From contig CALUWL010000002.1 of NCBI GenBank assembly GCA_944324445.1, forward strand, positions 7,868 to 71,867: DNA of 64,000 nt, written 5' to 3'. This stretch comes from Candidatus Gastranaerophilales bacterium. Its GTDB lineage: Bacteria; Cyanobacteriota; Vampirovibrionia; Gastranaerophilales; Gastranaerophilaceae. This document shows positions 634-46,085 of the stretch, in pieces. A program made the translations under genes and the position numbers. A model generated the notes under the pieces. It made no database searches. It worked only from the letters and a program-made list of their open reading frames with translations, and was not told the origin of the DNA. The first letter of the stretch is position 1. Every line of letters begins with the position of its first letter.

Positions 634-707
634 TTTACTATATCGTGGAACACAACATATTATAGTATAACTATAAGGATATGATAAGATAAAAGGATTT
701 ATTGGCT

Positions 708-4601: not shown

Positions 4602-4794
4602 TTGGTATCTCCTTATTACTTATTTATTTTATATTTCGTACTTACATATATATAAAGTATATCTTTTATAATAAATTGCCTTTTTGTTTTTTATTTTTAG
4701 AATTTCCTTAATATTTCTTAACAAATTCCTAACTAAAATACTTAAAACGCCTGACAAAACTGGACAAAATATTTTTTATCATTAATAGAAAATT

Positions 4795-5181
4795 ATGAAA
4801 AATATACTCATAAAATTTTTTAAAAACAAAAATAAATGCACCCATAAAAACGCTCTAATAAACACAAATGAAGGATATTGCCCCGATTGCGGACAATATC
4901 TTGTTAAAAATTATTATATTGTAAGATGTGCATCATGCGACATAAAACGAGAAGCAAAGCTCTATTGGGGCGAAATAGTACCTAAAAATAAATTCTGCTC
5001 AAATTGCGGCGCAAGCGAATACTACATAGAAAAACTCGACAAAATCAATTTTATTGATGCACAATTTGCAATATATATAAAAGAAATAGCAGAAGAAATA
5101 AAAAACCAATCCCCTGAAACACAAATTTGGGTAGAAAAAGAAAATGGAACAATAAAACAAATAGAAGTAAAATCAGCCTAG
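4795..5181 (+). CDS. Hypothetical zinc-ribbon protein (three CxxC pairs)
   Basis: CPDCGQ, CASCD and CSNCG pairs are present. I recognise no other family. The 3' end overlaps the dnaE stop by 9 nt. Confidence 0.5.
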   Translation: MKNILIKFFKNKNKCTHKNALINTNEGYCPDCGQYLVKNYYIVRCASCDIKREAKLYWGEIVPKNKFCSNCGASEYYIEKLDKINFIDAQFAIYIKEIAEEIKNQSPETQIWVEKENGTIKQIEVKSA

Positions 5182-8100
5182 AGCACGAATTTCAACTTCC
5201 AGCTTATCTTTAAATGTAGCAGTTAATTCTTTTTCAATTGAATCATTTATATTAACCCAAAGATGATTATTTGTAAGCATTTCAAACCTTCTTACATTAT
5301 CAAATTCATCAGGCGCCTCAAAATCGATTACGACAGGATTTTCACCCTTATGCTTTACAAGAAGTTCCTTTAATAAAATGTTTTCTTCAGCTGCAAACTC
5401 CTTTAAAAAATGCAAAGTAACAAGATTTACCTGCTCTATAGGCTTAACTTCAATAATAGAAAGATTAATTTCTTCATCTCTAATGTTAACTTTTGCTCTT
5501 AAAATAGCTTTATGCTCTGATTCAATTAACGCTCCATAATTTTCCACTACTTTTGGGAAGGCAACTATTCCAATTCTACCTGTTAAATCTTCGATTTGAC
5601 CTGTTTTTATATATTTTGTCGGGTCTTTTTTAGTTGGTTTTTGAACAATTTGAGATAATAAACCGCAAATTGTAACTGTTTCATCTTGTTTCGGATTTTC
5701 TAAAATATCTTCAATGGTTTGAGTTGTGATATATTTTAAAGTGTCTTTAATTGAAGCTAAAGGATGAGAGGTTACATATATTCCCATTAACTCTTTTTCA
5801 AACATCTGGATTTGAGAATCGCTAAATTCATCCTCGCTGCTGCCTGACATTTTAAATGTAGGTATGTTAAGTTCTTCCTGTGCATCTTCACCAAGAGCAG
5901 AAAATAGACTAACTTGACCTGACATTTTGGTTTTTTCGGAGTTGTGAACAAATTCAACAACATTATCAATATTATTTAAAAGTTGTTTTCTGGATTTTTC
6001 AATTGATGCAAAGGCACCGGCTTTAATCAAGCTTTCCAATGTTCTTTTATTCAAACATTTTGAATCAACTCTTGAACAAAAATCAAAGAAGCTTTCAAAA
6101 GGCTTATCTTTTCTTTCATTTTCAATTTGCTCAATAACCGCTTCTCCAACATTTTTAATTGAAGCTAAACCAAAACGAATATTTTTGCCATCCGGTGTAA
6201 ATTGAGAGTTAGATTTATTAATATCGGGCGCTAAAACCTCTATTCCCTGCGCTTGACATTGAAGAATATATTGTTGAGTTTTTTCTTGCTTATCAGCAAC
6301 CGAAGTTAACATTGCACACATAAATTCAACAGGATAATGAGCCTTCAAGTACGCTGTTTGATAAGCAACAAATGCATAAGCAGAAGAGTGCGCCTTGTTA
6401 AAACAATATTTTGCAAAGCTTTCTATTTGTTCAAACAATTTTGTTGCAGCTTCCGAGCTCATTCCTTTTTTTGCCGTCGCTTCAACAAAAATTGATTTTT
6501 GCTCCGCCATTTGTTGAAGCTTCTTTTTACCCATCATACGACGAACCATATCAGCTCCGCCCAATGAATAATCAGCTAAAGTTTGGAAAATAGCCATAAT
6601 CTGCTCTTGATAAAGGATTGTTCCGTAAGTATCTTTTAAGATACTTTCAAGTAGGGGGTGAGCATATTCAATTTTTTGACGGCCGTGTTTTCTGTCTATA
6701 AAATCTTCAACCATGCCGGCTTCCAACGGCCCAGGACGATACAGAGCAACCATAGCGCCCAAATCCTCAAATACAGTAGGCTTTAGACGTTTAATATATT
6801 TTTTCATTCCGCTTGATTCAAGCTGGAAAACTGCATCCGTTTCGCCTTTAGAGAGCATTTCAAAGGTTTCTTTATCATCAAGAGGAATATTATTTATGTC
6901 AATATCTTCCCCTGTTCTTTCTTTAATTAAATCAAGTGCATCTTGAATAATAGTCAAAGTTTCAAGACCCAGAAAGTCCATTTTAAGAAGACCTAATTTT
7001 TCAATTCCCGCCATAGGATATTGAGTTGTTGTTGCTTTTTCTTTTGATAATGCAACAGGGATAATCTCATCCATAGGTCTTGGTGCAATAATAACACCTG
7101 CTGCATGAGTTCCTACCTGATTTTTTAAGCCCTCCATATGAAGCGCTTCATCTACAAGACTTTGAACCTGAGAATTTTCATCACAAAGTTTTTTTAATTC
7201 CATTCCGTCTAAAAGCGCATCTTTTAATTTTGTTCCCGGATTTGATGGAATCATTCCCGCCCAAGAGTTTGCTTGCGAAAAAGGAATATCATAAACCCTG
7301 CACACTGCTTTTAGGGCAGCTTTTGCAGCCAATGTGCCAAAAGTTATAATCTGACAAACATGATCTGCCCCCCAACGCTCAGAAACATAGTCTATAACTT
7401 CGCCTCTGCGTCTTTGGCAAAAATCGATATCTATATCAGGCATTGATATACGTTCAGGATTTAAGAAACGCTCAAACAACAGATTATGCCTAATTGGATC
7501 AAGTTCTGTTATTCCCAAAGAATAAGCTACAATACTTCCTGCAGCAGATCCACGACCCGGACCGACAGGAATTTTATGTTCTTTTGCCCAATTTATAAAA
7601 TCCCAAGTCAAAAGAAAATAAGCAGGAAAACCCATTTTGCATATTACATCAAACTCATATTCATAACGTTTGATTATATCATCAGGAATAGGATCTCCAT
7701 ATCTTTTTTTCAATCCTTGACGACACAAATGGTCAAAATATTGAACTTCATTGTATCCCTCAGGACAAGGATATTTTGGTAAATATTCCTTTGTTTTGCC
7801 AAATTCCAATTTATCCATTTGGAAATCAACTTTATCGGCAATTTCAACTGTATTTGAAATACAAGTATTAAAATAATCTTCATCCATCCAAGAAAATGCT
7901 TGTCTTAATTCTTCAACGGTTTTAACATAAAACTCATTAACGGAAAATTTAAACCTGTCGGGATTAGATTTTGAAGATTTTGTTTGCTCACATAACAAAG
8001 TATCATGCCAAGCGGCATCTTGAGCTTTAAGATAGTGCGAGTCATTTGTTATTACCGTTTTAATATTTAATTCTTCAGCAATTTCCATTAAAATCGGGTT

Positions 8101-20018: not shown

Positions 20019-21950
20019 ATGAATACCATTAATTTTACAAATAATATACAGTCAAATTCTCTTTCAAGCGAGGTCAACAAAAGACTCGAAAATAAAGAGA
20101 ATTTTACTGCTATTAATAAAGAACAATTAAAACAAGATGTGGCAGAGTTTCAAGAAAAAGCTCAAGACCACGCTAAAGAAAATTTTATTTCGCAAACTTT
20201 AAAAAATATTGCTCCAAAAGATGTTAAAAAGTTTGCTATTTCACTGACTGCAACTCTTGCAACTGTTGTAGGGCTTGCTATTCTCGGAAACAAATCGTCA
20301 AATAAAATGGCGCAATTAGGGCTTCAACTTGATGATTTTCTTCTAAATCAAAAATGGTATCAATCTATATCCGGTTTCTTTAAAAAAGGAAAAGACGGCA
20401 TTGTAAAAACTTTAAGAAAATCAAAAACAATTGATAATATAATGGACACCTTTAAAAATCGTCCCGCAAAAGCAAAATGCGACTTTTCAAGAGGCTATGG
20501 ACGCGGTTTTGTAAGCATTTTCAGTTTAACTCCCGTTGATATTCTAAAAAAAGCATTTGCCAATATGGATGAAAGTAAACAACTTGAATCTTTAAAAAAA
20601 CTTGTAGGTGATAAAAAAGCAAGCATTTTTTCAGAATTCCTTCAAGGTAAATCAAAAACTATTTTAGATAACAAAGATTTTTGTACAAAACTAACAGAAG
20701 CAATTAAAGAAAATTTTAACTTAAAAAGTAATGCTGACCTTTTAAATTTCTTTAAAGCGCTTCAAAACGGCAAATATCAAAATACAGATTTTAGTGAACT
20801 AATAAATGTCAATATGACAGAAAAAGGGCTTGGAAGCCTTGCGGGCGCTTGGTGGCCTGTTAATATAATTGATTCTATCGGAAGCAAGATATCTAAAGGA
20901 AAATGGAAAAATATCGGCAGAGGCAACCTCGGCGATTCAATGATTAAATTTAATGTTGTAAACGGTTCACTTGCAAAAACCGCTCCTGCTAAATTATTAC
21001 AACAAGCAATCACTATTCCAACCGAATCAATTTCAAACTTTGTAAACGATAAATCAGGCATGGGTGCATTTTTATGTATACCTATAATGTCTTTATATAA
21101 CAACGTTCAAGATGCCCCAAAAGAAAAAAGAGCAGCAACAATTGCAGATGATTACGTAGGCACAATGGGAAATATTGCAATCTCAACTCCTCTAGCTTAT
21201 GGTGCCACTTATGCTCTTGCAAGTTTAAAAAATCTCAACAACAAACAAGGATTCCTTGCTAAACCATTAAAGCTAATAGGCGAATTTTTTGGTATGGGTC
21301 TTGATAGATATAAAGACGGTGTTCTCAAAACAGTCGAAAAAAGTTGGCGTAATGTCATTCCAAGATACTTAGGCGGCGCTTTAAGATTTGGTCTTATTAT
21401 GTTTGCTTTTTCACCATTTTTCTCTAAGCCCATTAAAAGTGCTATAAATAAAATCTTTGGAAAACCTTATGATGCAAATGAAGCAGCAAAAGAAAAACAA
21501 CTTCAAGAGCAAAGAAATACAGTTATACCTGAACTTGGAATAACACAGGGGGAACTTAATGATAAAATTGAAGCAAACCCTGATGCAGTAGCCAAACTTC
21601 AAAAAGATCCAATGCTATTAAGAGAAATTCAAAAAGATCCTAAGAAAATCTTAGATATATTAGACGGAAAAGAAATTCAAACCAAACCAAAGGATAAACT
21701 TTTAAGCCCTGCTAATTTAAATCTAACAAAAAACACAAACAATAAAAGGGAACTCTTTAACGATAAGCAACAAGTACAACAAGAACAACAAGTACAATCA
21801 GAAGAATACAAAATAAAAGATACTGCAACATATATTCCATCAAGCGAATTTACGGTTAAACCGACATTAAATGATATTCAAATTCAAGAATACCAAAGAC
21901 TAATGAATGATTCCGATAAAATTCTAAAAAAAGCTGAAAAATATATTTAA
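20019..21950 (+). CDS. Hypothetical lysine-rich membrane protein, distant paralog of 39525..40698
   Basis: 643 aa with several hydrophobic segments. It shares the motif IP[IV]...D..EK[KR].A....[DE][FY] and the C-terminal helix ...P...SKPIKSAINKIF with the two ORFs at 39.5-40.7 kb. Confidence 0.55.
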   Translation: MNTINFTNNIQSNSLSSEVNKRLENKENFTAINKEQLKQDVAEFQEKAQDHAKENFISQTLKNIAPKDVKKFAISLTATLATVVGLAILGNKSSNKMAQLGLQLDDFLLNQKWYQSISGFFKKGKDGIVKTLRKSKTIDNIMDTFKNRPAKAKCDFSRGYGRGFVSIFSLTPVDILKKAFANMDESKQLESLKKLVGDKKASIFSEFLQGKSKTILDNKDFCTKLTEAIKENFNLKSNADLLNFFKALQNGKYQNTDFSELINVNMTEKGLGSLAGAWWPVNIIDSIGSKISKGKWKNIGRGNLGDSMIKFNVVNGSLAKTAPAKLLQQAITIPTESISNFVNDKSGMGAFLCIPIMSLYNNVQDAPKEKRAATIADDYVGTMGNIAISTPLAYGATYALASLKNLNNKQGFLAKPLKLIGEFFGMGLDRYKDGVLKTVEKSWRNVIPRYLGGALRFGLIMFAFSPFFSKPIKSAINKIFGKPYDANEAAKEKQLQEQRNTVIPELGITQGELNDKIEANPDAVAKLQKDPMLLREIQKDPKKILDILDGKEIQTKPKDKLLSPANLNLTKNTNNKRELFNDKQQVQQEQQVQSEEYKIKDTATYIPSSEFTVKPTLNDIQIQEYQRLMNDSDKILKKAEKYI

Positions 21951-22510
21951 AAACCGTATATCTTTTTTACCGTTTCAATGTCTTTTTTAGATACGGTGCT
22001 TAATCTTGGGGTAGCTGTTGAATAATACATTATGTCATTAACATTATCGCTATGCCCTAATATTCCGATTGCATGCCCTATTTCATGTAAGGTTATTTTA
22101 TTTAACTGAACATCAGTATATTTAAATCCAATCGGACTGCTTTTTGAAATTGAGATTTCTGCTTTAGCTAGATAAATCTTTCCTTGGATTTTTGTATGTG
22201 CTGTTTTTGTAATACCTGCTTCACTGCCATTTAATTTATCAACATATTTTATAACTATATCAGCTTCATCAGCTGAATTTACATATTTAAAATTCAAATT
22301 GCTTCCAAGAGCATCATCCCAAATTTTAAAACTTCTTGTAAAAATATAACCTTTTAGTTCATCAGGTGTTATATACACCTTAATATTCTTTGGATTTATC
22401 CAAACAGCAGGAATTTTAACATCATCATAATAAGTCCTAAAATCTTCTCTTGCAATAGCACAAGAAAATAAAGAAAAATAAATTAAAGCTATGCTAATTA
22501 AATACTTCAT
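21947..22510 (-). CDS. Secreted matrixin-like zinc metalloprotease (metzincin)
   Basis: HEIGHAIGILGH (HExxHxxGxxH) followed by a Met-turn candidate DIMY. An N-terminal signal/lipobox-like sequence LFSCAIA. Confidence 0.75.
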   Translation of the reverse strand: MKYLISIALIYFSLFSCAIAREDFRTYYDDVKIPAVWINPKNIKVYITPDELKGYIFTRSFKIWDDALGSNLNFKYVNSADEADIVIKYVDKLNGSEAGITKTAHTKIQGKIYLAKAEISISKSSPIGFKYTDVQLNKITLHEIGHAIGILGHSDNVNDIMYYSTATPRLSTVSKKDIETVKKIYGF

Positions 22511-27060: not shown

Positions 27061-27954
27061 CTAAACTTTTTGCTTAACTTTTTTTAGTTTTGTTTTTTGA
27101 AAAATCATTATATACTCATGTTCAAAAATATTAAAGCCGCCCGATAATGCCCTATATCTCCATAGATTTGCAGTTTTACCTTTTGCTTTTTCGTTTCCTG
27201 TTATATTTTTTACAATAACAGCTTTAGTAACAAAACCAAGTTCTTCCATTCTTTTTTGACATTCAAAAGCAAGAGAAACATATCTGCTGTTTGCATATTT
27301 ATCGCCTATTATCAAAGCTGCAAAACGATTTTGTTCCAATAAATCATATCCGTTTTTTGCAACTTTTTTAAATAAATCGTAAAATTCTTCAGTAGTGGCA
27401 CAATTCGATAAGTCTTCTTTTTTATCCGAAAACTTAATTATATCATCATAAGGCGGATGCAAAATTAAAAATTGTGCGCTTTTTTCGCCCATAATTTCTA
27501 ATCTTGCTTTAATTTTTTCTTTTGCATCTAAAGAAGCACTATCACCTTGAATTATATTGACATCTACAACAAGTTCTTTTTTAGTAAATTTAGATGAAAC
27601 ATAATCCACCATATCTTGCTTTAATTCCACGCCGATACAGCGCCTTTGCATGTTTTTAGCTTCAATTCCGGTTGTTCCCGAACCGAAAAACAAGTCAAGA
27701 ACTATATCATTTTTCTTTGTATATCTTGTTAAAAGCTGCGTTGCAATCTGGGGAATATAGTTTCCATGGTAGTCATAACTATGTCCGCCGCTTTTTTCAC
27801 GAGAAGAAAACTCCCACCAAGTACCTGTTTTAACATTTTCATATAATTTCCAATTATTCAAATCAATATCGTTATAAGGTTTGGTTTTAATTGGTTTTAC
27901 AACCTCAAGGGCTGCTTTTTTTTCATTTAACTTCTTTTTTGAACTGATTGGCAT
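27061..27954 (-). CDS. Orphan (D/N/S/H)PPY-type nucleic-acid methyltransferase (N6-adenine/N4-cytosine class)
   Basis: SAM motif VLDLFFGSGTTGIEA comes first, followed about 75 aa later by LILHPPYDDII. The preferred start is ATG 27954 (MPISSKKK), which has a GGGGGA upstream. The ORF track start at 28005 adds 17 hydrophobic residues. Confidence 0.65.
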   Translation of the reverse strand: MPISSKKKLNEKKAALEVVKPIKTKPYNDIDLNNWKLYENVKTGTWWEFSSREKSGGHSYDYHGNYIPQIATQLLTRYTKKNDIVLDLFFGSGTTGIEAKNMQRRCIGVELKQDMVDYVSSKFTKKELVVDVNIIQGDSASLDAKEKIKARLEIMGEKSAQFLILHPPYDDIIKFSDKKEDLSNCATTEEFYDLFKKVAKNGYDLLEQNRFAALIIGDKYANSRYVSLAFECQKRMEELGFVTKAVIVKNITGNEKAKGKTANLWRYRALSGGFNIFEHEYIMIFQKTKLKKVKQKV

Positions 27955-28075
27955 AAATTCCCCCACAAGAGTCTTTGAATAAAGTATAATTAAAGTCAAA
28001 GACAATTAAATCAACCTTATACACTAAATATTTTTAATAAACGCAATTTTTTTTATTGAGCGGTTTTAACGAAGT

Positions 28076-31301: not shown

Positions 31302-32489
31302 CTATTTAATCCCCATTTTTATGATGCCTTTACCGAATTTTTCTTCAAGCTTATCCCAAGATTTTGATAAGTTCTCTTTTTTAACCGATTCCTCACCATC
31401 AAAAATGGAAACCTGTCTTGCGCTTGCAGGGGTTAATTTCATAGCGCAAAACCCTACAGAACGATAAACAATTCCTTTTGAAAACATTTTATCCAAAATT
31501 TGCCTTGAATGCTCGACAAGCTCAAATTCAATATTTGTAGGATTAATAAGATTTATTTTGATATCCGAAACTTGAAAATCTTTTGTTCTTAACATAACTG
31601 AAATGCAGCCTGTTAAAAGGTTTTGACTTCTTAATTTTTTGCAAACCTTATGAATGTGAGAATTCAATTCTTTTTGGATATAGTTTTTATCGGTTTGAAA
31701 TTCCTTAAAGCTTTCACTTCTTGAAACCGACTTAGGGGCTTCTTGGACTGATTTAACAGGATTAATTGAATTTCCCAAAAGCTCTTGTTTTAAATCCAAT
31801 CCGACTTTTCCTAAGTTTTTCTTTATCCAAATATCCTCTTGAGAAGTAAAATCCCAAGCAGTTTGAATTAAATATTTTTTCAATAAAGCGGTTGTATTTT
31901 TGCCAACCCCCCAAATCTCACTTATTAAAGTTGATTTAAGCTCTTTTTCAATTTCCCTGTAGCCTATTTTATAGGTTTTTATATCTATCAATTCATCTTT
32001 CAGAGTTTTTTGAAGATTTTTTGTTTTCTCGCAAGCAAGTTTTGCTAAAACCTTAGAATAAGAAAGCCCGACCGAAACATCGATTCCTACTTCATCTTTA
32101 ATATCTTTTACGATTTTTTTAATTATATCTTCATAAGAACATTTAAAAGTCTTTCTTAAGCCCGTCAAATCCAAAAAAGCTTCATCAATTGAATATATTT
32201 CAACATCAGGAGTAAAATCATAGAGTTTATCCATAACTCTTTTTGAAATTTCACAGTAAAAAGGTAAGTTGCCTGATAAAAACACAACTTTTTTAAATTG
32301 ATTTTTAATCATAAAATAAGGCGCGCCCATATTAACACCCATTTTTTTAGCTTCATTAGAACGGGACACAACGCAGCCGTCATTATTAGATAATACACAA
32401 ACAGGTTTTCCGATAAGTTCAGGCTTTAAAAGCCTCTCACAGGATACAAAAAAATTATTACAGTCAACAAGCGCTATAACTCTTTTCAT
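31302..32489 (-). CDS. umuC: Y-family translesion DNA polymerase, UmuC-like
   Basis: IALVDCNNFFVSCERLLKPELIGKPVCVLSNNDGCVVSRSNEAKKMGV closely follows the UmuC N-terminus. The start overlaps the lexA stop (TAATG). Confidence 0.8.
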   Translation of the reverse strand: MKRVIALVDCNNFFVSCERLLKPELIGKPVCVLSNNDGCVVSRSNEAKKMGVNMGAPYFMIKNQFKKVVFLSGNLPFYCEISKRVMDKLYDFTPDVEIYSIDEAFLDLTGLRKTFKCSYEDIIKKIVKDIKDEVGIDVSVGLSYSKVLAKLACEKTKNLQKTLKDELIDIKTYKIGYREIEKELKSTLISEIWGVGKNTTALLKKYLIQTAWDFTSQEDIWIKKNLGKVGLDLKQELLGNSINPVKSVQEAPKSVSRSESFKEFQTDKNYIQKELNSHIHKVCKKLRSQNLLTGCISVMLRTKDFQVSDIKINLINPTNIEFELVEHSRQILDKMFSKGIVYRSVGFCAMKLTPASARQVSIFDGEESVKKENLSKSWDKLEEKFGKGIIKMGIK

Positions 32490-33076
32490 TAGCCGATTTT
32501 CCTTGTTATACCAATTGCAACACCAAAAATTGATAAAGAATTTTTAGGACGAATAATAGGATAATTACTATTTTCAGGTTTTAAATACGGACCTTTTTCA
32601 TCTTCTTTATAAGTTTTTAAAGTAAATTCTCTATCTACAATTGCAAGTACAATATCGCCGATACTAGCATTTGGTGTCTTTTTTATTATGACATAATCAC
32701 CGTCAAATATTCCGACATCAAGCATTGAATCCCCTGAAACCTTAAAAACATAAGTTGAAGGACTATTGATATTTAAAAGCGAATCAAAAGAAATTCTTTT
32801 TTCGATTTTATCATCCATAATCGAAGCAAAACCTGCTTTAACATAACTTGAAACAAGCTTCGCACCAAGATATTCAGGGTTTATATATAAATTTTCATCC
32901 TTAAATAGTAAAAAGCCCTTATTTTTCAAAACTTCTATATATTGTTTAATAGAATTTTTTGATTTATAGCCAAAAATATTTTTAATTGTTTCATAACTGG
33001 GCAGGGCTCTTTGATTAAATACCCCGCTTAATTTTTCAAAAAAAGTTTTTTGTCTTTCGGTTAATTCATTTTTCAT
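32489..33076 (-). CDS. lexA: LexA-family repressor / S24 self-cleaving peptidase
   Basis: An N-terminal winged HTH (LTERQKTFFEKL...IEVLKNKGFL). An Ala-Gly cleavage context VKAGFAS. The catalytic Ser in VSGDSM and Lys in FTLKTY. Confidence 0.8.
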   Translation of the reverse strand: MKNELTERQKTFFEKLSGVFNQRALPSYETIKNIFGYKSKNSIKQYIEVLKNKGFLLFKDENLYINPEYLGAKLVSSYVKAGFASIMDDKIEKRISFDSLLNINSPSTYVFKVSGDSMLDVGIFDGDYVIIKKTPNASIGDIVLAIVDREFTLKTYKEDEKGPYLKPENSNYPIIRPKNSLSIFGVAIGITRKIG

Positions 33077-33318: not shown

Positions 33319-34134
33319 CTATAGATCATCAACAAGTTTAGAATCAGATTCCATATTGGATTTCAGAGTTTGTCTTACGATATCTGCTTGAGTATCCAGC
33401 ATTTTACAGACTGTTTCAATATTTCTTACTTTATCCTCTAAAATAACATCAGCGTTATTTGTAATATTGCCTGTTATATTTTGATAAGCGGATAAAGCAG
33501 CAGAACCCGTACCTTGCATTAAATTACCCGCAAGAATAGCACCGAGTCCAAATTCACCTGCATAAGGCGCCAACGCTTGCAAAATGCCGCCCCATCCTGA
33601 AATTAAACCTGCAATCGGAAGCACAAAATTTTGTCCAAAGCCAAATCCGCTTGTAGCTCCGGCCGCATAAGATGCTGTGTTCATAGCTGCCAAACCTGCA
33701 GCAGAAACAGCATATCCTGTTGCCATACCCGCAGCACCGCCTGTCGGAACTCCATCTGTTCCAAAGCCAAGAGTTATACCTGCAGCTCCTGAAGGAAAAC
33801 CCGAATAACTTGATAAACCCGAAACACCAAAAGAATTAGTGCCGGAATCAAGATAAGAGTTTGTAGAATAATTAGGCGACCAATAAGATGTACCGGGGAT
33901 ATTCATCATCTGCGCACCGCCCAATGTCGGCATAAAGCTTGAAGGCGAAAATAAATTAGCTAATTGCCACAAAAATCCGCCTGCAGAACCAAACCCGGAA
34001 CCTGTAGCAGTTGAACCTGAAACAGTTAAATCTCTTAACCTATCATAAGTTTCATATAATTCTGCCTTAGCTGCGGAGCTTGCCGCTCCATATCTATTCG
34101 CAATAGTTAACTCATGGTCATTTTTATAGGACAT
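33319..34134 (-). CDS. Hypothetical glycine/alanine/serine-rich protein with glycine-zipper-like hydrophobic core and helical termini
   Basis: 271 aa. GAGG RBS. No signal peptide. The central region reads GSGFGSAGGF...AGLISGWGGILQALAPYAGEFGLGAILAGNLMQGTG. The C-terminus is a charged helix. I recognise no family. Confidence 0.6.
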   Translation of the reverse strand: MSYKNDHELTIANRYGAASSAAKAELYETYDRLRDLTVSGSTATGSGFGSAGGFLWQLANLFSPSSFMPTLGGAQMMNIPGTSYWSPNYSTNSYLDSGTNSFGVSGLSSYSGFPSGAAGITLGFGTDGVPTGGAAGMATGYAVSAAGLAAMNTASYAAGATSGFGFGQNFVLPIAGLISGWGGILQALAPYAGEFGLGAILAGNLMQGTGSAALSAYQNITGNITNNADVILEDKVRNIETVCKMLDTQADIVRQTLKSNMESDSKLVDDL

Positions 34135-34270: not shown

Positions 34271-34298
34271 TAAAAAAAAGCCCTTAATTTTAAGGGCT
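34271..34298 (-). terminator. Rho-independent terminator of the Cys-rich pilin-like gene
   Basis: The minus strand reads AGCCCTTAA..TTAAGGGCT followed by T8. It lies 32 nt after the stop at 34330. Confidence 0.65.
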
Positions 34299-34329: not shown

Positions 34330-35892
34330 TTATTCCATTTCAGTAACACAGCGAACAGACCCGCTTACACTATTTACTACCGAACCTTCGCTCCATAGCC
34401 CTTGTCCAATAGAATAAGCTCTTGCTATCAACTCGTTAGACTCGCCTGCATACCAGACATATCTTGCTAAACAAATATCTTTATTTGCCCCTTTGCAATA
34501 TATAGGGTCATTACACAATGTTACATAATCTGCATTGTCAGAACTACACAACATAAGTCCATTATTTCCTAAACTGAAAGTTAAATATGCCCAATTTTCA
34601 GCTTCAATTTTTGTTGCTAATCTCCAAGCTTTTCCTGCATAATTAAATTTAGCGCAAATTTCCTCTGCTGCGCTATAATTACACACTGTTCTTGTGCAAC
34701 CATCGTAACTTCCGTTATTTGAATTACAATTAGAGCTTGTAGTCCCCTTCCAACAACATTTGGCGGATTGAGAGTAACAATATTCGCCGCCTGCTTTAAC
34801 AACAGTTACAGTCGAAGGAATAGTTAAAGTATTGCTATCACCCATATTCAATCTTGTTACACAAAGATTGCCTATTTTCATAAAATTACTGTCAGAACAA
34901 TTGAATTTATTATCATCACCTATACAACTATTTTTGTCTTCAGATAAATGGTATCCTTGATTACAACTCAAGCACGAACCGTCTGCGCCACATTGAGCAC
35001 AATTATTGATGGAGCAAATAGAACAACCTTTTGAGCTATTTACATAATATCCTTTTTTACAATATAAACAAGTTGTTTTATCGGAACAATTTGTGCAATT
35101 AGGAATTTCCGAACAAGGAGAGCATTTGTTTGACGAATTTATATAAAAACCACTGTAGCACCTTGTACAAGTATTAGCATCAGAACAATAATAGCAATTT
35201 TCTATAGCACTATAACAATAGCGAGTACATGAATGAGTAGTTGTATCCATAATCATATATGAACTACATGTAAGGCAATATGAACTATCCTGACACTTCC
35301 TGCAATGCGCTGCACAAGGTTTACAATCCTTATTAGAAATATAATAACCGCTTTGGCAGCTTATACAACCAGAAGAATTACATGTTGAACAATAACTTGA
35401 GTATTTATCACTACATTTTCTTATGTTATTTCCATCGCAAAAATACCCATTGGGGGGATTAGTGCAATAGCTTTCATCATAGGCATTTATTCCATCACAG
35501 ATTTTATTAGTAGGACAATTTTCACATTTGCCGTTATTAATGTAGTAGTTATTATCTTTGCACTTTGTACATTTAGTGCTATCACATTCTGAACAGTTAG
35601 AATGTAGAGTTGAACAATCCTTACAAGAACAGTTTTTATTTTCTGCATATTGTCCTATAGGACATGTAGATAGTTCACATTGAATACAATATGATTTAGT
35701 ACATAGTTTACAATTTGATGAAAATTTATCTGTGCATTCTGTTGTTATATCTGATACATTATTTCCCCCTATTGTAACGTTAGAATTTTTCATTTTTTTA
35801 GTTATAACAGGAGTAAATGCTGCAACAATGCATGATATTGTAATTAAACTAATCATTAGTTCGATTAGAGAAAAGGCTAAAATCTTTTTCAT
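34330..35892 (-). CDS. Type IV prepilin-like N-terminus fused to furin/VSP-like CXXC cysteine-rich repeats and a DUF1566-like C-terminal domain
   Basis: MKKILA/FSLIELMISLITIS has Glu at +5 and a hydrophobic helix. Repeats of the type C-x2-C-x(5-8)-C-x2-C-x2-G[YF]Y[IV]N-x(4-5)-C-x2-C follow. By hand I counted 63 Cys in 520 aa. The C-terminus (GKAWRLATKIEAENW ... SVRCV) resembles DUF1566/Fib_succ-type domains. Confidence 0.7.
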   Translation of the reverse strand: MKKILAFSLIELMISLITISCIVAAFTPVITKKMKNSNVTIGGNNVSDITTECTDKFSSNCKLCTKSYCIQCELSTCPIGQYAENKNCSCKDCSTLHSNCSECDSTKCTKCKDNNYYINNGKCENCPTNKICDGINAYDESYCTNPPNGYFCDGNNIRKCSDKYSSYCSTCNSSGCISCQSGYYISNKDCKPCAAHCRKCQDSSYCLTCSSYMIMDTTTHSCTRYCYSAIENCYYCSDANTCTRCYSGFYINSSNKCSPCSEIPNCTNCSDKTTCLYCKKGYYVNSSKGCSICSINNCAQCGADGSCLSCNQGYHLSEDKNSCIGDDNKFNCSDSNFMKIGNLCVTRLNMGDSNTLTIPSTVTVVKAGGEYCYSQSAKCCWKGTTSSNCNSNNGSYDGCTRTVCNYSAAEEICAKFNYAGKAWRLATKIEAENWAYLTFSLGNNGLMLCSSDNADYVTLCNDPIYCKGANKDICLARYVWYAGESNELIARAYSIGQGLWSEGSVVNSVSGSVRCVTEME

Positions 35893-35933
35893 GTTTATTT
35901 CCGAAATATTAAACTATTCATTAATTTTTAATA

Positions 35934-35993
35934 TAAATTTATTATCTATAATAAATATTATTATTACTAATAATAAATTTAAAGATAAATTTA
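35934..35993. promoter_or_regulatory. Three copies of the palindromic octamer TAAATTTA in the XRE / pilin-like divergent region
   Basis: TAAATTTA at 35934-35941, 35974-35981 and 35986-35993. Each copy is preceded by A, giving the 9-mer ATAAATTTA. Confidence 0.3.
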
Positions 35994-36005
35994 GTCAACA
36001 AGTTA

Positions 36006-36034
36006 TTATAAAATTCGCGCAAAGTTTCTAAAAT
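36006..36034 (+). promoter_or_regulatory. Candidate promoter of the XRE gene (TTATAA-17 nt-TAAAAT)
   Basis: TTATAA at 36006-36011 and TAAAAT at 36029-36034. GAGG at 36041-36044 precedes ATG 36049. Confidence 0.35.
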
Positions 36035-36048
36035 GTAGATGAGGTTAT

Positions 36049-36369
36049 ATGAAAAACATAAAAACTTTGCTCGGTCTAAGAATAAGAGAAATAAGAAAAC
36101 AAAATAAACTAACTCAAGAACAACTGGCAGAAAAAATAGGAATTGAAATCCCCAGTTTAAGCAATATAGAAAATGGGAAAAACTATCCAAATTCAGAAAC
36201 CATAGAAAAAATAGCAAACGGTCTGAATATTCCTATTTTTAAGCTTTTTATCTTTGAGCACCTTAAAGAACCGGACAGCAAAAAAATGCTGCAAGAAATT
36301 AATTTGGTTCTTGAAAAAAATCCAAAACTGCTAAAAACAATCTATACAATTACAATGAATTTAAAATAA
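36049..36369 (+). CDS. XRE-family helix-turn-helix transcriptional regulator
   Basis: LGLRIREIRKQNKLTQEQLAEKIGIEIPSLSNIENGKNYP is a canonical Cro/C1-type HTH. Confidence 0.85.
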   Translation: MKNIKTLLGLRIREIRKQNKLTQEQLAEKIGIEIPSLSNIENGKNYPNSETIEKIANGLNIPIFKLFIFEHLKEPDSKKMLQEINLVLEKNPKLLKTIYTITMNLK

Positions 36370-40872: not shown

Positions 40873-42270
40873 CTATTGACCGAGGTAAACAAGCGTTTCA
40901 AGCATACTGTTTGCACTAGAGAATACTTGAGAATTAGCCTGAACCAATCTTTGAGCTAAAATCATATTTGAAAATTGCTGAGCAAGGTCAACATTAGAAG
41001 ATTCTAAAGCTCCTGTTACAACACCGCCGACACCATTTACATTTGCCGCAGTATATAAAACATCACCGCAATTTACGCCAATTTCATATTGGTTATTGCC
41101 GGCAGCAACAAGCCCGCCATTATTGGTTACCTTCGCCATTTGTAACTGCATGTTGGCCTTTTCTAATACATTTGGATCAACATACAATGAAGCATTTCCT
41201 GAATTTTGGATATCATCATTGATTATAATTCCATTTGCATCTGTATATGAAAAATATGTTGAACCGTCATCATTTGATTTAATCGAAAGCTGTGAACCAT
41301 CTTCATAAGTAACAGTCATAAGCCCGTCTTTACCAACAGAAAAACTTTCATAATTTTTTGTTGACTCAGAAGTAATATCATCAACTTGACCAATTGTAGC
41401 AGATACATTCATTAATTTTGTAGTATAAGCTCCATCTACCAGAGGCATGGAAGCTAAATTCGTTGCTGCAACAAAATTTGAACCGCCATCTTTTTCATCT
41501 ATAGTTTCAAATTTTAAAGAAGTAACTGCACCCTGTGGTTCAAAAGATATAGCACCATCCACTACACTTGCAGTATATTTTCCATTTGCAACAGCATTTA
41601 TAGCAGCAACTATATCATTTACGGTTTTATTTGAAGTGTCGCCAAGATCAACTTCAATCTCACTATCTACACCGCCTTCATTAGCAATAATTTTAAATTT
41701 TCCGCCAGTAATTCCATTAAATGTACTTCCAAGTCCATTTAAATCAGAAGAAAACATTTGACCGAACATAGCAGCAGGAGTACCGTTTTCAGTTACTTTT
41801 ATTGAAGTTGGAATTTTAATCGGAGTAGTAGAACGATTCAAAGAAACATTTTGATCCATACCCAAAACTTTAGAACCATTGGCAGTACACAAATATCCGT
41901 TTTCATCTAAAGTAAAAGATCCGTCTCTTGTTAACAATACTTTTCCATCTGAATCTAAAACAGTGAACCAGCCGTCGCCGGTGATTGCCATATCCTCTGC
42001 TCTACCTGTTGTATTGGTACTTGCTGCACCGAAATCTTTAGTAATTGCAGCACATTGAACACCTACACCAATCTGATAAGGATTTGTTCCGCCGGAATTT
42101 CTTGTTGAACTTGTTCCGGTTGAATTTGTTTGATACCAAATATCCTGAAAATCAACACGTGAAGTTTTATATGCAGTTGTGTTCATATTTGCAACGTTAT
42201 CTGAAACGACAGTTAATTGTTGCGTGCCTGCATTAAGACCTGTCATGGACGTAAATAATGCTTGTGTCAT
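40873..42270 (-). CDS. flgE: Flagellar hook protein FlgE
   Basis: The N-terminus ALFTSMTGLNAGTQQLTVVSDNVANMNTTAYK and the C-terminus LESSNVDLAQQFSNMILAQRLVQANSQV are conserved rod/hook signatures. Confidence 0.9.
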   Translation of the reverse strand: MTQALFTSMTGLNAGTQQLTVVSDNVANMNTTAYKTSRVDFQDIWYQTNSTGTSSTRNSGGTNPYQIGVGVQCAAITKDFGAASTNTTGRAEDMAITGDGWFTVLDSDGKVLLTRDGSFTLDENGYLCTANGSKVLGMDQNVSLNRSTTPIKIPTSIKVTENGTPAAMFGQMFSSDLNGLGSTFNGITGGKFKIIANEGGVDSEIEVDLGDTSNKTVNDIVAAINAVANGKYTASVVDGAISFEPQGAVTSLKFETIDEKDGGSNFVAATNLASMPLVDGAYTTKLMNVSATIGQVDDITSESTKNYESFSVGKDGLMTVTYEDGSQLSIKSNDDGSTYFSYTDANGIIINDDIQNSGNASLYVDPNVLEKANMQLQMAKVTNNGGLVAAGNNQYEIGVNCGDVLYTAANVNGVGGVVTGALESSNVDLAQQFSNMILAQRLVQANSQVFSSANSMLETLVYLGQ

Positions 42271-42289
42271 TTAATTTGTTTTCCTTTCT

Positions 42290-42952
42290 TTATTGTCCTT
42301 TGATGTCATCAATTGTTTGTTTTGCATATTCGTAAGCTTTTTTTGCAAGATTACCTTCGCTTAAAGTATTTAGTGCGGCAGCAGATTTAGCCGCTTGTAC
42401 GGCATCATCCACCACATTCGAAGCTCCATCACTTTCACTTTCACCGCTTCCTTCGGTTTCACCGCTTCCTTCGGTGTCTCCGCCTTCTCCATCTCCTTCA
42501 CCTTCTGAACCACCCGAAGCTTCAGTTAAATAATAGACATTTGTAATAGATGAAAGTGGGAAATATCTATCACCAACAAAAACACTTGCCCCGTTTGCAT
42601 CAGAAAAATCCACACCTTCGACTATTCCAATAGCAGCTTGACCATCTACTTCAACTCTAACACATTGACCAAGCAGAGAATTAGCCTGATAAATGTTTGA
42701 AAAAGATGAAAACGTACTTGTTAAAGCTTCCATCTGCTCTAATGTTGCAAATTGAGCTTCTTGCGCTAACATTTCGGAGTTATCCATAGGATTCATAGGA
42801 TCCTGATATTTCAACTGTTCTGTTAACAATCTCAAAAAAGCCTGAGAATTTATAGAAGTTGAAGATTTGGTTTCTGCTGTACTTTTAGAAGCTGCCGCAG
42901 CCATTTGTGAATAATTAGTATTCGCAATTATTTGTTCTGAAACTGTAGCCAT
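42290..42952 (-). CDS. flgD: Flagellar hook assembly/capping protein FlgD with acidic Gly/Glu/Ser C-terminal extension
   Basis: FLRLLTEQLKYQDPMNPMDNSEMLAQEAQFATLEQM is the FlgD N-terminal signature. The tail reads GGSEGEGDGEGGDTEGSGETEGSGESESDG. Confidence 0.85.
   Translation of the reverse strand: MATVSEQIIANTNYSQMAAAASKSTAETKSSTSINSQAFLRLLTEQLKYQDPMNPMDNSEMLAQEAQFATLEQMEALTSTFSSFSNIYQANSLLGQCVRVEVDGQAAIGIVEGVDFSDANGASVFVGDRYFPLSSITNVYYLTEASGGSEGEGDGEGGDTEGSGETEGSGESESDGASNVVDDAVQAAKSAAALNTLSEGNLAKKAYEYAKQTIDDIKGQ
42440..42475 (-). repeat. Perfect 2 x 18-nt tandem repeat inside flgD (encodes TEGSGE TEGSGE)
   Basis: TTCACCGCTTCCTTCGGT at 42440-42457 is repeated exactly at 42458-42475. Confidence 0.85.
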
Positions 42953-42968
42953 ATAACTTTTCCTTTTT

Positions 42969-45623
42969 TTAATTTAGCCCGTAATTTATTGTCTTATTAA
43001 GTACACCTGAAAAATCCTTGGCAAAATGGTAATCATAATTAGACATTGCCATAAGAGTTTCCTGCTTATCTTTTTGATTTTGCTCGCCTTCATGATTTTG
43101 ATTATTGAAATTATTGCGTCCTTCTTGGCTATTTTGCCCCAAATTGTCTTGATTTCCTTGATAATTAGAACTTCCATCTTGACCTGCGGTTTTTATTTGG
43201 ATATTGTTTACATTTATACCTGCATCAGTCAATTGCTGCCTTAAAGTTTGAATATTTTTCTCAATATATTGTCTTACGTCTTCATTTTGCGCCAAAATAT
43301 TGGTCGTTAATCCAAGATTATCCGAAACTAATTCAATAGAAAGTCTTCCAAGATCATTGGGTCTTAAAACAAGAGTAAGTTTTTGCGCTGAAGCATCTTT
43401 CATTTGAGTTAATTTATCACCAATTTGATTCATTAAATCGCTGTTTTCAAGCTGATTTAATATTGGATTTTGCAGTGTTTGCGCTCCTTTTATCATTTGA
43501 GCTGCATTTTTTATAACTGCAACATTACCGGATGCGCTATCATATAAAACACTTCCTTTAAAAGTAGTGTCTGTTTTTAAAACCCCAACATCATCCATAG
43601 CAAGTCTTACAACTTCGTCGCTAACTGATAAAGTACCGGAATTTTCGGGTATTGTAGAAAAATCTATATCAAGAAGAATATCCTCTTTGATTTCTGTTAT
43701 AAAACTATCTTTTTTTACAGACACAGTTTTTTCTTGGATATCATAATCATCAGTTGTTTCAATGTCTTCTTTTAATTCAACTTTTCCTTCCAATAAATCA
43801 TCTTGTGTTTGATTTTGAAAATCATTTTGATTATTTAAAAACTCATTTGAAGAATTATTATTTTCACCTTGTTTTTCAAAAACATCCGAAATATCTATAG
43901 TATTTGATTCATTTTTTATATTTTGAACATTTGATGTCTTGTCTGAAGCTATAACATCAACATCTGCATCACTAGAATTTACATCTATGGTTTTTATTTC
44001 ATGATTTATTTGCGTCTGAACAGCAGCAATTTGTTCACCCAATTTTTGAAAATCGAAATCCGCTTGCTGAACTACATCATCTTTTTGAACATTATCCAAC
44101 TGCTCTAAAATATCTTTTATGTTATCTTTTAAAGATTGTGAAATATTTAAATCATCCTCTGAATTTTGAAATTCGTTAAATATATCCAAAACATCTTTAA
44201 TTAAAGTTTCATCAACTGAATTTATATCAATATCAGATAAATCAATATCTTTTAATACCTCATTTAATTTATTATTTAATTGACTCAACTTTTCAGTTTC
44301 AAAAGAATTATTTTGAAAATCAGTTTTAACCGTATTTTCATCATTTTGTACATCTTTTAAAATATCAGAAATTGCCGAAAGATTTTCTTTTAAAGATTTA
44401 ACATCAACATCTTTTGATAAATTTATATCAACTTCAATATCATCCAGCGTAGTTTTTAATTCATCAATTGCTATATTTAAATCTTCAAGACTATATGTGC
44501 TATTCTCATCAGCATTTGAAGGTAATTTTTCAATCACATTATCAAGCGCTTGAGAAATTTTTTCCGAATTATCAATTTTATCAGTTTTCAAAATTTCTTT
44601 AAATTTATCCAAAACTTTATTTATTTCAGAAAAATCCTTTAATTCTATATCTTGAGATGAAATTTCAACAGATTCAATAGATGCGTCATCTGATACTTCG
44701 CTATTTGAATCCGCAATTTTTGAAACCAAGTCGTTAAATTCAGTAATTAAATTATCAAAATCACTTTTTACAACATCAGTTTCTATTAAATCTTTCGCTT
44801 TATCAAGCAGCAAGGATAAATTTTCCTTATTTTGCTCAGATAAATTTGATTCATCTAAAATATTTGAAATATCTTCAACAATTTCAACAGCATCATTCGG
44901 GCTTTCAATTTTAGAGATGATATCTTCAGTCTTTTGTATCAAGTCTTCAATCTGTGCTTGATTTTGTCCAACACCGGTTAGCGGCAATACAGTGGTCGAA
45001 GCGATTTTATCAGTATCGATATCTTCACTTAATTCAATATCTTCTTCTGTAGTTTCTTCGTAAAGAAAAACCGGTGATGACTCTACTTGCGAGCTATTAT
45101 TTATGTCCGTTTGATTATCAACGTCTTTTTCAATTTCAACTTCATTAACTGTTTTATTTGAATCAGTTATTTTATCTGAATTATTTACTGATGTATCATC
45201 TGTTACGGTTTCTTTATTTTCACTTGTATCAACAACATTTTTTTTGCTATTAGAATTTTTTATAACCCCATCAACGTTGTTTGCTTTAGACGAATCCTTA
45301 ACATCAGTCAGGGATTTATCTTTTGTTTTAACATTTTGCAACTGAGAGCCTTTAGAATCAACTTCAATTTTTGAAATTGTGCTATCTTTTGAATTATCTT
45401 TGGATAATGCTTTTTTATTAATTGAACTTGTATTTGTTTTGATTGCTTTTTCAACAAAATTTGTCTGTACTTTTTGGGTACGCGCACTTAAATTATTCAA
45501 TAAATTTGAAAAATTAGATTTCTCTGCTTTATCAGAATAATTTGAAACATTATTACCGTTTAACATTGTATTTATAATAATGTCATTTGGATTTTCATTA
45601 TTCTGCACAACTGCGTTTGTCAT
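42969..45623 (-). CDS. fliK: Flagellar hook-length control protein FliK (unusually long, 884 aa)
   Basis: The C-terminal Flg_hook-type domain reads LTLVLRPNDLGRLSIELVSDNLGLTTNILAQNEDVRQYIEKNIQTLRQQL. It sits between fliJ and flgD. A long acidic D/E/N/S-rich spacer is present. Confidence 0.75.
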   Translation of the reverse strand: MTNAVVQNNENPNDIIINTMLNGNNVSNYSDKAEKSNFSNLLNNLSARTQKVQTNFVEKAIKTNTSSINKKALSKDNSKDSTISKIEVDSKGSQLQNVKTKDKSLTDVKDSSKANNVDGVIKNSNSKKNVVDTSENKETVTDDTSVNNSDKITDSNKTVNEVEIEKDVDNQTDINNSSQVESSPVFLYEETTEEDIELSEDIDTDKIASTTVLPLTGVGQNQAQIEDLIQKTEDIISKIESPNDAVEIVEDISNILDESNLSEQNKENLSLLLDKAKDLIETDVVKSDFDNLITEFNDLVSKIADSNSEVSDDASIESVEISSQDIELKDFSEINKVLDKFKEILKTDKIDNSEKISQALDNVIEKLPSNADENSTYSLEDLNIAIDELKTTLDDIEVDINLSKDVDVKSLKENLSAISDILKDVQNDENTVKTDFQNNSFETEKLSQLNNKLNEVLKDIDLSDIDINSVDETLIKDVLDIFNEFQNSEDDLNISQSLKDNIKDILEQLDNVQKDDVVQQADFDFQKLGEQIAAVQTQINHEIKTIDVNSSDADVDVIASDKTSNVQNIKNESNTIDISDVFEKQGENNNSSNEFLNNQNDFQNQTQDDLLEGKVELKEDIETTDDYDIQEKTVSVKKDSFITEIKEDILLDIDFSTIPENSGTLSVSDEVVRLAMDDVGVLKTDTTFKGSVLYDSASGNVAVIKNAAQMIKGAQTLQNPILNQLENSDLMNQIGDKLTQMKDASAQKLTLVLRPNDLGRLSIELVSDNLGLTTNILAQNEDVRQYIEKNIQTLRQQLTDAGINVNNIQIKTAGQDGSSNYQGNQDNLGQNSQEGRNNFNNQNHEGEQNQKDKQETLMAMSNYDYHFAKDFSGVLNKTINYGLN

Positions 45624-45641
45624 TTTTCCCCTTAAAAGTTT

Positions 45642-46085
45642 TTAAACTGCTTTTCTTCTTGAATTTACGATATCATCGATTTCTTTTACTTCCTGTTGTA
45701 AAAATTCTCTATCGTAATCCTCTTTTTGTTTTTGCTTCAAGTTTTCCAAGGATTTTACCTTTATATATGCCAGACGTGCAGCTTCTTGTGCCTTTAATAA
45801 ATCTTTATAAGTTTCAGCCATTATTTTTTCTTGTGATTTAATATCCTGAGTTAACTTATACGAAAAAGAATTAAAATTCGAAATCATTTCGGGATTAAAT
45901 TCCCCTTCATTAAGATACTTTTCCGACTCCTTCTGAATGCAAACCAATTCAAAATTCATCTCATCAAGAACATCTTTTTGTCTGTTGTATATATTCATTA
46001 CGGAAGCAAGCTGTATCCTTGCATCATCAAGTGCCTTTTTCCTTACGACAAGGACACTTTCAAGGTTAAACTTAAACCTCCTCAA
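45642..46085 (-). CDS. fliJ: Flagellar export chaperone/stalk protein FliJ
   Basis: 147-aa all-helical protein. MRRFKFNLESVLVVRKKALDDARIQL resembles the FliJ N-terminus of Bacillus-type proteins. It lies immediately upstream of fliK. Confidence 0.7.
   Translation of the reverse strand: MRRFKFNLESVLVVRKKALDDARIQLASVMNIYNRQKDVLDEMNFELVCIQKESEKYLNEGEFNPEMISNFNSFSYKLTQDIKSQEKIMAETYKDLLKAQEAARLAYIKVKSLENLKQKQKEDYDREFLQQEVKEIDDIVNSRRKAV

Follow-up and report, generated by a model that had tools for sequence, protein, structure and literature searches.

Modular type IV pilins, in which a pilin carries an additional functional module, include Streptococcus sanguinis PilB with a von Willebrand factor type A (vWA) module, S. 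sanguinis PilC with a lectin module, and CofB of enterotoxigenic Escherichia coli (ETEC), as described by Raynaud et al. 2021 (PMC8179133). Lectin-like tips are also known outside this class: the C-terminal domain (CTD) of Legionella Lcl, which adopts a C-type-lectin-like fold, binds sulphated glycosaminoglycans (PMC11162425), and Bdellovibrio bacteriovorus Bd2740 is the C-type-lectin-fold tip, lacking a Ca-binding motif, of a prey-recognition mosaic adhesive trimer (MAT) fibre (PMC10769870). In the Sulfolobus bindosome, sugar-binding proteins with class III signals need a dedicated type IV-like assembly system (PMC3047682). Here we analyze a gene for a 520-amino-acid (aa) protein in a 64,000-nucleotide (nt) stretch of DNA from Candidatus Gastranaerophilales bacterium (assembly GCA_944324445.1, contig CALUWL010000002.1, positions 7,868 to 71,867), referred to below in its full length as the window. 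An earlier reading of the letters (the original prediction) had proposed a prepilin-type leader fused to furin-like repeats and a DUF1566-like domain. We read the gene, with a probability of about one half, as encoding a modular type IV pilin-like adhesin made by a gut bacterium of the Gastranaerophilales (Melainabacteria) that has flagella and an outer membrane. Gastranaerophilales are widespread, uncultured gut relatives of cyanobacteria. The gene is real, and its product is most likely a surface adhesin.

The gene is an intact open reading frame (ORF) of 520 codons with an ATG start, and its product divides as follows:

34330..35892, minus strand: whole gene, stop codon included, encoding the 520-aa protein with prepilin-type leader, Cys-rich stalk and lectin-like head (ORF and translation)
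35875..35892, minus strand: leader peptide MKKILA, residues 1-6, short and basic, with a predicted prepilin-peptidase cut after Ala6
35794..35874, minus strand: alpha1N-like hydrophobic helix, residues 7-33, with Phe+1, Glu+5 and Pro+22, then KKMK (family conservation, model)
35743..35793, minus strand: flexible linker, residues 34-50 (low predicted local distance difference test score, pLDDT; variable in the family)
34918..35742, minus strand: Cys-rich beta-hairpin stalk of furin-like / ephrin-receptor-like CxxC repeats, residues 51-325 (Cys scaffold, profile, Foldseek)
34333..34917, minus strand: C-terminal Lcl_C/DUF1566-type C-type-lectin-like domain, residues 326-520, with the conserved end SVRCVTEME (domain model, Foldseek, relatives' Pfam matches)
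34366..34572, minus strand: hypervariable segment in the lectin-like domain, residues 441-509 (33% identity, highest column entropy)

An AlphaFold2 model built with a 64-sequence family alignment reached a pLDDT of 87.4 and a predicted template modelling score (pTM) of 0.71. It consists of a helix at residues 9-35, a disordered stretch at 31-46 (pLDDT below 50), beta-hairpins spanning about residues 50-330 and an alpha/beta domain at 337-520. The original prediction had looked to such a model for a pilin alpha1 helix plus laminated repeats; the helix and a beta-hairpin rod both appear in it, but a globular pilin domain does not. In addition, 64 aligned relatives were each scanned individually with Pfam. 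The three-module architecture (class III signal, Cys-rich repeats and Lcl_C domain) is supported through these relatives and structure prediction, not through hidden Markov model (HMM) matches of the query, and on the query alone the domain names would fail a standard annotation pipeline.

The N-terminus reads MKKILA followed by FSLIELMISLITISCIVAAFTPVITKKMK, giving a predicted mature N-terminus of FSLIELMISLITISCIVAAFTP with Phe+1, Glu+5, about 20 hydrophobic residues and a Pro near +22. This is the only prepilin-like motif in the six-frame translation of the window. Glu5 and Pro22 are a hallmark of the alpha1N helix in type IVa pilins and type II secretion system (T2SS) pseudopilins and are tied to filament assembly. 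Glu+5 is nearly invariant in the family alignments A1 and A2. A pattern that itself fixes Glu+5 located the motif in 110 family members; 109 of these have Phe+1 and all 110 have Pro+22, and position -1 holds Ala in 76 members and Gly in 34. The query has Ala there. No other module of the protein is as conserved as the alpha1N segment, in which the 18 closest relatives share 82% identity, and the linker that follows differs in length and sequence across the family alignment. As judged from these alignments, the predicted prepilin features are conserved far beyond chance.

N_methyl (PF07963) matches 44 of the 64 relatives at E<=0.01, with best scores of 25-26 bits and some above the cutoff. On the query, an NCBIfam scan gave no match to TIGR02532 and just sub-threshold N-terminal matches to ComGE, ComGC and PilV. 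Solved pilins matched the family profile at the N-terminus only (E 0.04-0.14). A protein search with the 43-aa N-terminus alone, seeking a major pilin that shares the alpha1N segment, returned four short fragments and no such pilin, and a metagenome scan with the alpha1N-only alignment A4 returned mostly generic prepilin motifs (among the matches listed, three relatives, one of them a frameshifted family member).

The same leader and alpha1N segment also precede other cargos, at the related loci L018 (9992-11446), L011 (9989-12640), L007 (9959-11680), L016 (9995-11590) and L017 (7879-9645). These alternative cargos include a protein of 484 aa that has 81 Cys and lacks a lectin-like C-terminus, as well as proteins of 531-883 aa with 16-47 Cys. 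Because one leader and alpha1N segment is found on such differing cargos, the N-terminal module behaves as a portable handle.

Behind the handle, the stalk is defined by its cysteines. The protein contains 63 Cys (12.1%) and 19 CxxC motifs, compared to a mean Cys content of 1.2% and a maximum of 3.3% in 50 other window genes; the hand count of 63 Cys in 520 aa that accompanied the original prediction was exact, and every repeat unit quoted there is present. Of these residues 62 are extracytoplasmic, potentially forming 31 disulfide bonds, and 71 of 93 intact members have an even extracytoplasmic count. The Cys scaffold of the stalk is invariant in the family alignments, and stalk identity among the 18 closest relatives is 65%. 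The model renders the stalk as serial beta-hairpins with a pLDDT of 80-96, and Foldseek searches against the PDB matched it to R-spondin Fu1-Fu2 and to the Cys-rich domains of EGFR/HER (probability up to 0.99, E ~2e-3). Searched against PDB sequences, the family profile found the Chlamydomonas mastigoneme protein Mst1 (8tx1; 1.2e-22), Tetrahymena 7w5z (8e-7), the furin repeats of R-spondin (~1e-6) and ELAPOR1 (4e-3).

Pfam scans of the 64 relatives pointed the same way, with Ephrin_rec_like (PF07699) in 11 (best 9e-36, 122 bits), TNFR_ELAPOR1 (PF23091) in 10 and NCD3G in 3. The Giardia variant-specific surface protein family (VSP; PF03302) was matched by 6 relatives at E<=0.01, the best at 31.2 bits against a cutoff of 31.4. 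The furin/VSP-like identity first proposed for the repeats is supported through the family profile, Foldseek and the relatives' Pfam matches, but not on the query itself, which has no Pfam match to furin, Ephrin_rec_like or VSP even at E<=1.

The C-terminal 195 residues, modelled alone, gave a pLDDT of 94.1 and a pTM of 0.91. Foldseek matched this head to the Legionella Lcl-CTD (8q4e; probability 0.99, TM 0.49) and the Bdellovibrio Bd2740 CTD (8oks; probability 1.00, TM 0.54), followed by snake-venom C-type lectin-like proteins, the C-type-lectin-like domain (CTLD) of CD72 and the invasin InvE; in the viral library it found phage DUF1566 domain-containing proteins (probability 0.98-0.99, TM up to 0.66). 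Lcl_C/DUF1566 matches 45 of the 64 relatives at E<=0.01, with scores of 34.8-85.3 bits, and the Pfam scan of the query gave no Lcl_C (PF07603) match at E<=1 (gathering cutoff 34.9 bits). Because the head profile A3 found no meaningful match among PDB sequences, Lcl included, the link to Lcl comes from the relatives' Pfam matches and Foldseek. A DUF1566-like C-terminus had been proposed at the outset, and the relatives' Lcl_C matches and the fold agree with it, but the domain spans about residues 326-520 rather than ~130 aa. The accompanying suggestion of a Fibrobacter paralogous domain did not hold, as NCBIfam gave no TIGR02145 (Fibrobacter succinogenes major paralogous domain) match on the query at E<=1.

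Variation in the protein is concentrated within the head. Among the 18 closest relatives, identity falls to 33% in residues 441-509 versus 65-82% in all other modules (69% in the head core), the pattern expected, from sequence, of a diversifying binding surface. Separately, six long proteins (P0127-P0130, P0138 and P0150; 810-1332 aa) carry 4-6 tandem lectin-like C-terminal domains behind the same leader.

A search of 5.8 billion proteins yielded 174 relatives at E<=1e-3, all of them from metagenomes or metagenome-assembled genomes (MAGs). Seventeen loci fall in GTDB species-representative genomes, all gut MAGs: 15 are assigned to Melainabacteria/Gastranaerophilales, one to a 'Cyanobacteria bacterium' and one to an 'uncultured bacterium'. 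The family is multi-copy, with up to five loci in one MAG, and the ornithine/lysine decarboxylase encoded in the window is 76% identical to that of one family-bearing MAG. A protein identical to the query is also present on ENA contig ERZ28614114 scaffold_1421. Sources give just 'hypothetical protein' for family members, and a cluster look-up of ten NCBI/ENA relatives gave no family name. HMMER searches against 1.84 billion representatives reached further, returning 20,361 proteins at E<=1e-3 and 1,674 at E<=1e-30. Among the best 150 of the 20,361, every protein of <=1400 aa with an intact N-terminus has the same leader; the rest, giants measuring 1.6-7.9 thousand aa, bear Sec-type signal peptides, mostly have 9-15% Cys and resemble protist surface proteins. 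Because the representative library carries no taxonomy, we use 'eukaryote-like' on the basis of the giants' features and the eukaryotic solved-structure matches.

The surrounding window is ordinary chromosome, encoding DnaE, cell-wall synthesis genes, ATP synthase, flagellar genes, a TolC-like OEP and OmpH. The GC content of the adhesin gene (33.2%) lies within the local range (31.0 +/- 3.7% for the 50 other window genes), and its composition is therefore native. Several elements flank the gene:

36049..36369, plus strand: XRE-family helix-turn-helix (HTH) regulator, 106 aa, divergently transcribed partner (HTH_3 2.8e-17)
35893..36048, no strand: divergent intergenic region, 156 nt, AT-rich, with both promoters and imperfect inverted repeats (sequence scan)
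35970..35998, minus strand: promoter-like site TTGACT-17-TATTAT upstream of the gene (consensus scan, 10/12 matches; a pattern match only)
34279..34298, minus strand: intrinsic-terminator-like hairpin AGCCCTTAAAATTAAGGGCT then a T-run, 31 nt past the stop codon (sequence scan)

The terminator-like hairpin and T-run directly after the stop codon suggest that the adhesin gene is transcribed as a single-gene unit. Directly downstream lies a 271-aa Gly/Ser/Ala-rich ORF without a Pfam match (33319-34134, minus strand). We considered it as an operon partner and rejected it, given the terminator-like hairpin in between and the lack of a homolog in the 18 other loci examined.

Upstream, the arrangement with the regulator recurs. 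In 19 of 22 informative loci the prepilin-leader gene has a divergent XRE-family HTH gene (~100-115 aa) on its upstream side, across a gap of 75-374 nt that is below 235 nt in all but L011 (paired loci: the window, L001-L007, L009-L015, L017, L018 and L021-L023). The pairing is kept where the same leader bears a different cargo, and it extends to an unrelated prepilin-type protein of 255 aa (L015 6863-7186 with 7309-8076; homolog L023 5693-6016 with 4788-5546). It looks as if, throughout the clade, every prepilin-type gene has one regulator of its own, and we found no description of such regulatory logic for pilin-like genes in the literature searched. The HTH-prepilin intergenic regions gave no shared operator motif; several loci have palindromes of their own, which may be chance in AT-rich DNA. 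Co-divergence of the XRE and partner proteins found no support (Spearman rho 0.13, p 0.16).

Mobile-element-type genes flank family members at L021 (12345-13238), L022 (9009-9518) and L023 (12155-12989), encoding across these loci a phage-type integrase, a Y1 transposase and a zeta toxin with an HTH partner. The regulator-adhesin pair may move as a cassette.

Based on these features, we propose the following route to the cell surface. The precursor would insert in the inner membrane via its class III signal, and prepilin peptidase would cleave after Ala6 and methylate Phe+1. The alpha1N helix, with Glu+5 and Pro+22, would then let type IV filament machinery load the subunit into a pilus or pseudopilus core, with the flexible linker of ~15 residues holding the cargo away from the filament. 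That cargo is predicted to be a rigid furin-like-repeat rod, laminated by disulfides and capped by the C-type-lectin-like Lcl_C head, whose residues 441-509 may contact host mucus or other cells by binding a glycan or a surface ligand there. A genome holds several paralogs with differing heads, each next to its own divergent XRE regulator, and the repertoire would probably be controlled gene by gene.

We favor this reading because the head resembles two experimentally characterized adhesin tips, Lcl-CTD and Bd2740, because variation is concentrated in one head segment, and because modular pilins with adhesive domains are an established class (PMC8179133). Also in its favor, pil genes are reported for Gastranaerophilus (PMC5877343), and a T2SSE/MshEN ATPase gene lies in L021, 8 kb from a family member, the sole nearby machinery gene in the loci examined. 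The genes reported in the single-cell genome of Ca. Gastranaerophilus termiticola are pilA, pilB, pilC, pilT and pilD (PMC5877343). The PilD signature G.GD[VFIALM]K[LFYMIV] was absent from the six-frame translations of 23 loci and the window, a result that is uninformative for whole genomes. Two doubts raised with the original prediction, that the N-terminus might match no prepilin model and the organism lack a prepilin peptidase, or that the repeats might belong to an annotated family of known function, were not borne out: some relatives pass the N_methyl cutoff, a Gastranaerophilus prepilin peptidase is reported (PMC5877343) and the family is unnamed.

Several observations weigh against a filament-borne adhesin. 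The sole Pfam match of the query is N_methyl at 15.6 bits, under the cutoff of 21.2; the class III leader first proposed stands on its short basic leader, Phe+1, Glu+5, hydrophobic helix and the relatives' N_methyl matches, and not on an above-cutoff match of its own. Its -1 Ala departs from the canonical Gly; Ala at this position is tolerated by some prepilin peptidases. The globular pilin domain (alpha1C on an antiparallel beta-sheet) is absent from the AlphaFold model, and we found no described example of a filament subunit loaded without one. The TolC-like OEP, OmpH and flagellar genes of the window indicate an organism with an outer membrane and flagella, and surface display would therefore need an outer-membrane conduit; no secretin is documented for Gastranaerophilales in the literature consulted on this order. 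Families of type IV pilus and T2SS machinery were not found among the window ORFs of >=187 aa that were examined (some ORFs of <=164 aa lay outside the scan), in agreement with the original statement that no pilB, pilC, pilD or pilQ homolog is in the window, and the neighborhoods of five relatives are unrelated chromosomal contexts. The Foldseek E-values are modest (~2e-3; for the head 2e-3 and higher). An anaerobe would also have to form a large number of disulfide bonds. Because the model has only an alpha1N helix and a disordered linker where a globular pilin domain would follow, the protein is not a canonical pilin, and we treat it as working like a pilin-type subunit rather than as a proven pilin. 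The original suggestion of a tip or minor pilin, or of an adhesin displayed on a pilus, is still the reading we prefer, though not in the form of a canonical pilin.

Some of the same observations would also suit a membrane-anchored periplasmic or cell-envelope protein that never polymerizes, its prepilin-like segment serving as a signal-anchor, cleaved or not, and its rod and head acting in the periplasm or in a bindosome-like layer, for example by binding envelope or imported glycans. Such a protein would need neither the missing pilin head domain nor linkage to pilus genes, a leader shared by many unrelated cargos suits a general targeting signal, and archaeal sugar-binding proteins set an example of class III signals carrying cargo other than pilins (PMC3047682). 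However, the invariant Glu+5 and Pro+22, tied to filament assembly, would be superfluous in a plain anchor, the head is structurally closest to adhesin tips exposed at the surface, and a hypervariable lectin head better fits an external, changing ligand. On balance we consider an envelope protein, the chief alternative, rather unlikely.

Two further accounts concern where the variation and the stalk come from, and both appear very improbable. DUF1566 and C-type-lectin folds are typical target domains of diversity-generating retroelements (DGRs), in which reverse transcriptase rewrites a variable region from a template repeat, and a C-type-lectin-like C-terminus with its variable segment near the end and a hairpin after the stop codon would suit such a target. 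We rejected this explanation, as BLASTN of the 3' 571 nt against the 64-kb window gave 14-nt chance matches only; there is also no reverse transcriptase in the window Pfam scans or in the gene lists of five related loci, and the variable segments of relatives differ by insertions and deletions, not by substitutions alone. That the sequence is eukaryotic, as a contaminant or as a protist surface-protein gene transferred very recently, and not a functional bacterial gene, could be argued from the thousands of giant Cys-rich proteins (1.6-7.9 thousand aa, Sec-type signal peptides) found by the stalk profile and from the best solved-structure matches coming from Chlamydomonas and Tetrahymena. Yet the gene sits amid bacterial housekeeping genes on two independent assemblies, its GC content is in line with that of the window, it has a bacterial-type promoter-like site, a terminator-like hairpin and a class III signal, and it has more than 170 relatives, with all 17 reference-genome loci in Melainabacteria or unclassified gut MAGs. 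Ancient transfer of the stalk repeat module alone may have occurred.

Returning to the pilin-like adhesin, a broader version of this reading is that gut Melainabacteria run an unrecognized display system, in which a head-less alpha1N is a universal handle for loading interchangeable cargos on a type IV filament, protist-like disulfide stalks with hypervariable lectin heads are among those cargos, each gene has a private XRE switch and the stalk was perhaps acquired from eukaryotes. We regard this as doubtful speculation; if true, it would amount to a regulated adhesin repertoire comparable to the surface-antigen families of eukaryotic parasites.

Elsewhere in the window, flagellar genes at 702-2549 (plus strand) and 40873-46085 (minus strand) encode FliD, a rod/hook protein, an 884-aa FliK-like Flg_hook protein and FliJ, and the source organism is among the flagellated Gastranaerophilales. 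About 1.3 kb downstream of the adhesin gene, at 31302-33076 (minus strand), a LexA-like repressor gene (Peptidase_S24 plus LexA DNA-binding domain) has a one-base overlap with a Y-family ImpB/UmuC-type polymerase gene, a pair that looks like an SOS mutagenesis cassette. At 20019-22510, a 643-aa ORF without a Pfam match (plus strand) converges with the gene of a 187-aa Matrixin-type (Peptidase_M10) metalloprotease (minus strand), with a 4-nt overlap. An N6/N4 DNA methylase gene lies at 27061-28005 (minus strand), and its flanking genes, for a major facilitator superfamily (MFS) transporter and a 5'-nucleotidase-like protein, have no restriction-enzyme family match.

The family provides concrete candidate adhesins for the attachment of Gastranaerophilales to host or microbes, with a lectin head that is testable. 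It would also extend the range of modular pilins to a subunit apparently without a pilin domain, raising the question of the minimum requirement for loading onto a type IV filament, and it would be a case of a eukaryote-type Cys-rich stalk used in bacteria. The XRE-per-prepilin-type-gene rule points to a regulatory logic for pilin-like genes. Full-text searches of literature on Melainabacteria/Gastranaerophilales gave no description of this adhesin family. Its apparently new features are the furin-like stalk, the seeming lack of a pilin domain, a multi-copy repertoire specific to the clade and the pairing with XRE regulators.

Fusion of a prepilin motif to another domain is, as such, already catalogued. 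Two entries are relevant here: IPR011460, which we take to be DUF1566, and IPR011871, presumably the Fibrobacter paralogous domain. Dataset S1 of Raynaud et al. lists prepilin-motif fusions IPR012902-IPR011460 (7 + 2 proteins) and IPR012902-IPR011871 (40 proteins), and none of the Cys-rich-repeat entries IPR009030, IPR011641 and IPR006212 occurs in it (PMC8179133). The belief that this domain fusion was undescribed accordingly holds only in part. The adhesin shares with modular pilins a class III signal ahead of a large adhesive module that has nothing to do with pilus biology, and modular pilins are predicted to lie at the filament tip. Whereas modular pilins place a small globular pilin module between alpha1N and cargo, the adhesin as modelled passes from alpha1N to a disordered linker, and its family, unlike modular pilins, is multi-copy, unlinked to pilus genes and XRE-paired. 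Archaeal bindosome substrates likewise put a non-pilin functional protein on a prepilin-type signal (PMC3047682), but they differ in domain of life and cargo, and no dedicated assembly genes were observed beside the adhesin family.

The stalk has its counterparts in R-spondin Fu1-Fu2, EGFR/HER, Mst1, ELAPOR1 and Giardia VSPs, whose CxxC beta-hairpin laminated rod it is predicted to share. The solved examples among these counterparts are all eukaryotic secreted or membrane proteins with Sec signals, unlike the adhesin. A Giardia VSP terminates in a transmembrane helix with a CRGKA tail, whereas the adhesin ends in a lectin-like domain (...SVRCVTEME) without a VSP-type transmembrane helix or CRGKA tail. 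For the head, the best structural match is the Lcl-CTD of Legionella pneumophila (8q4e, PF07603). Lcl is a T2SS-secreted trimer with a collagen-like stalk and a CTD of 131 aa without disulfides (PMC11162425), whereas the adhesin head has ~195 aa and ~14 Cys, with no sequence-level match to 8q4e and a TM of ~0.5. The MAT fibres of Bdellovibrio are coiled trimeric and not prepilin-led, with a stalk unrelated to that of the adhesin, but Bd2740 resembles the adhesin family in being a tip on a long fibre and in belonging to a large paralogous adhesin repertoire with diversified tips.

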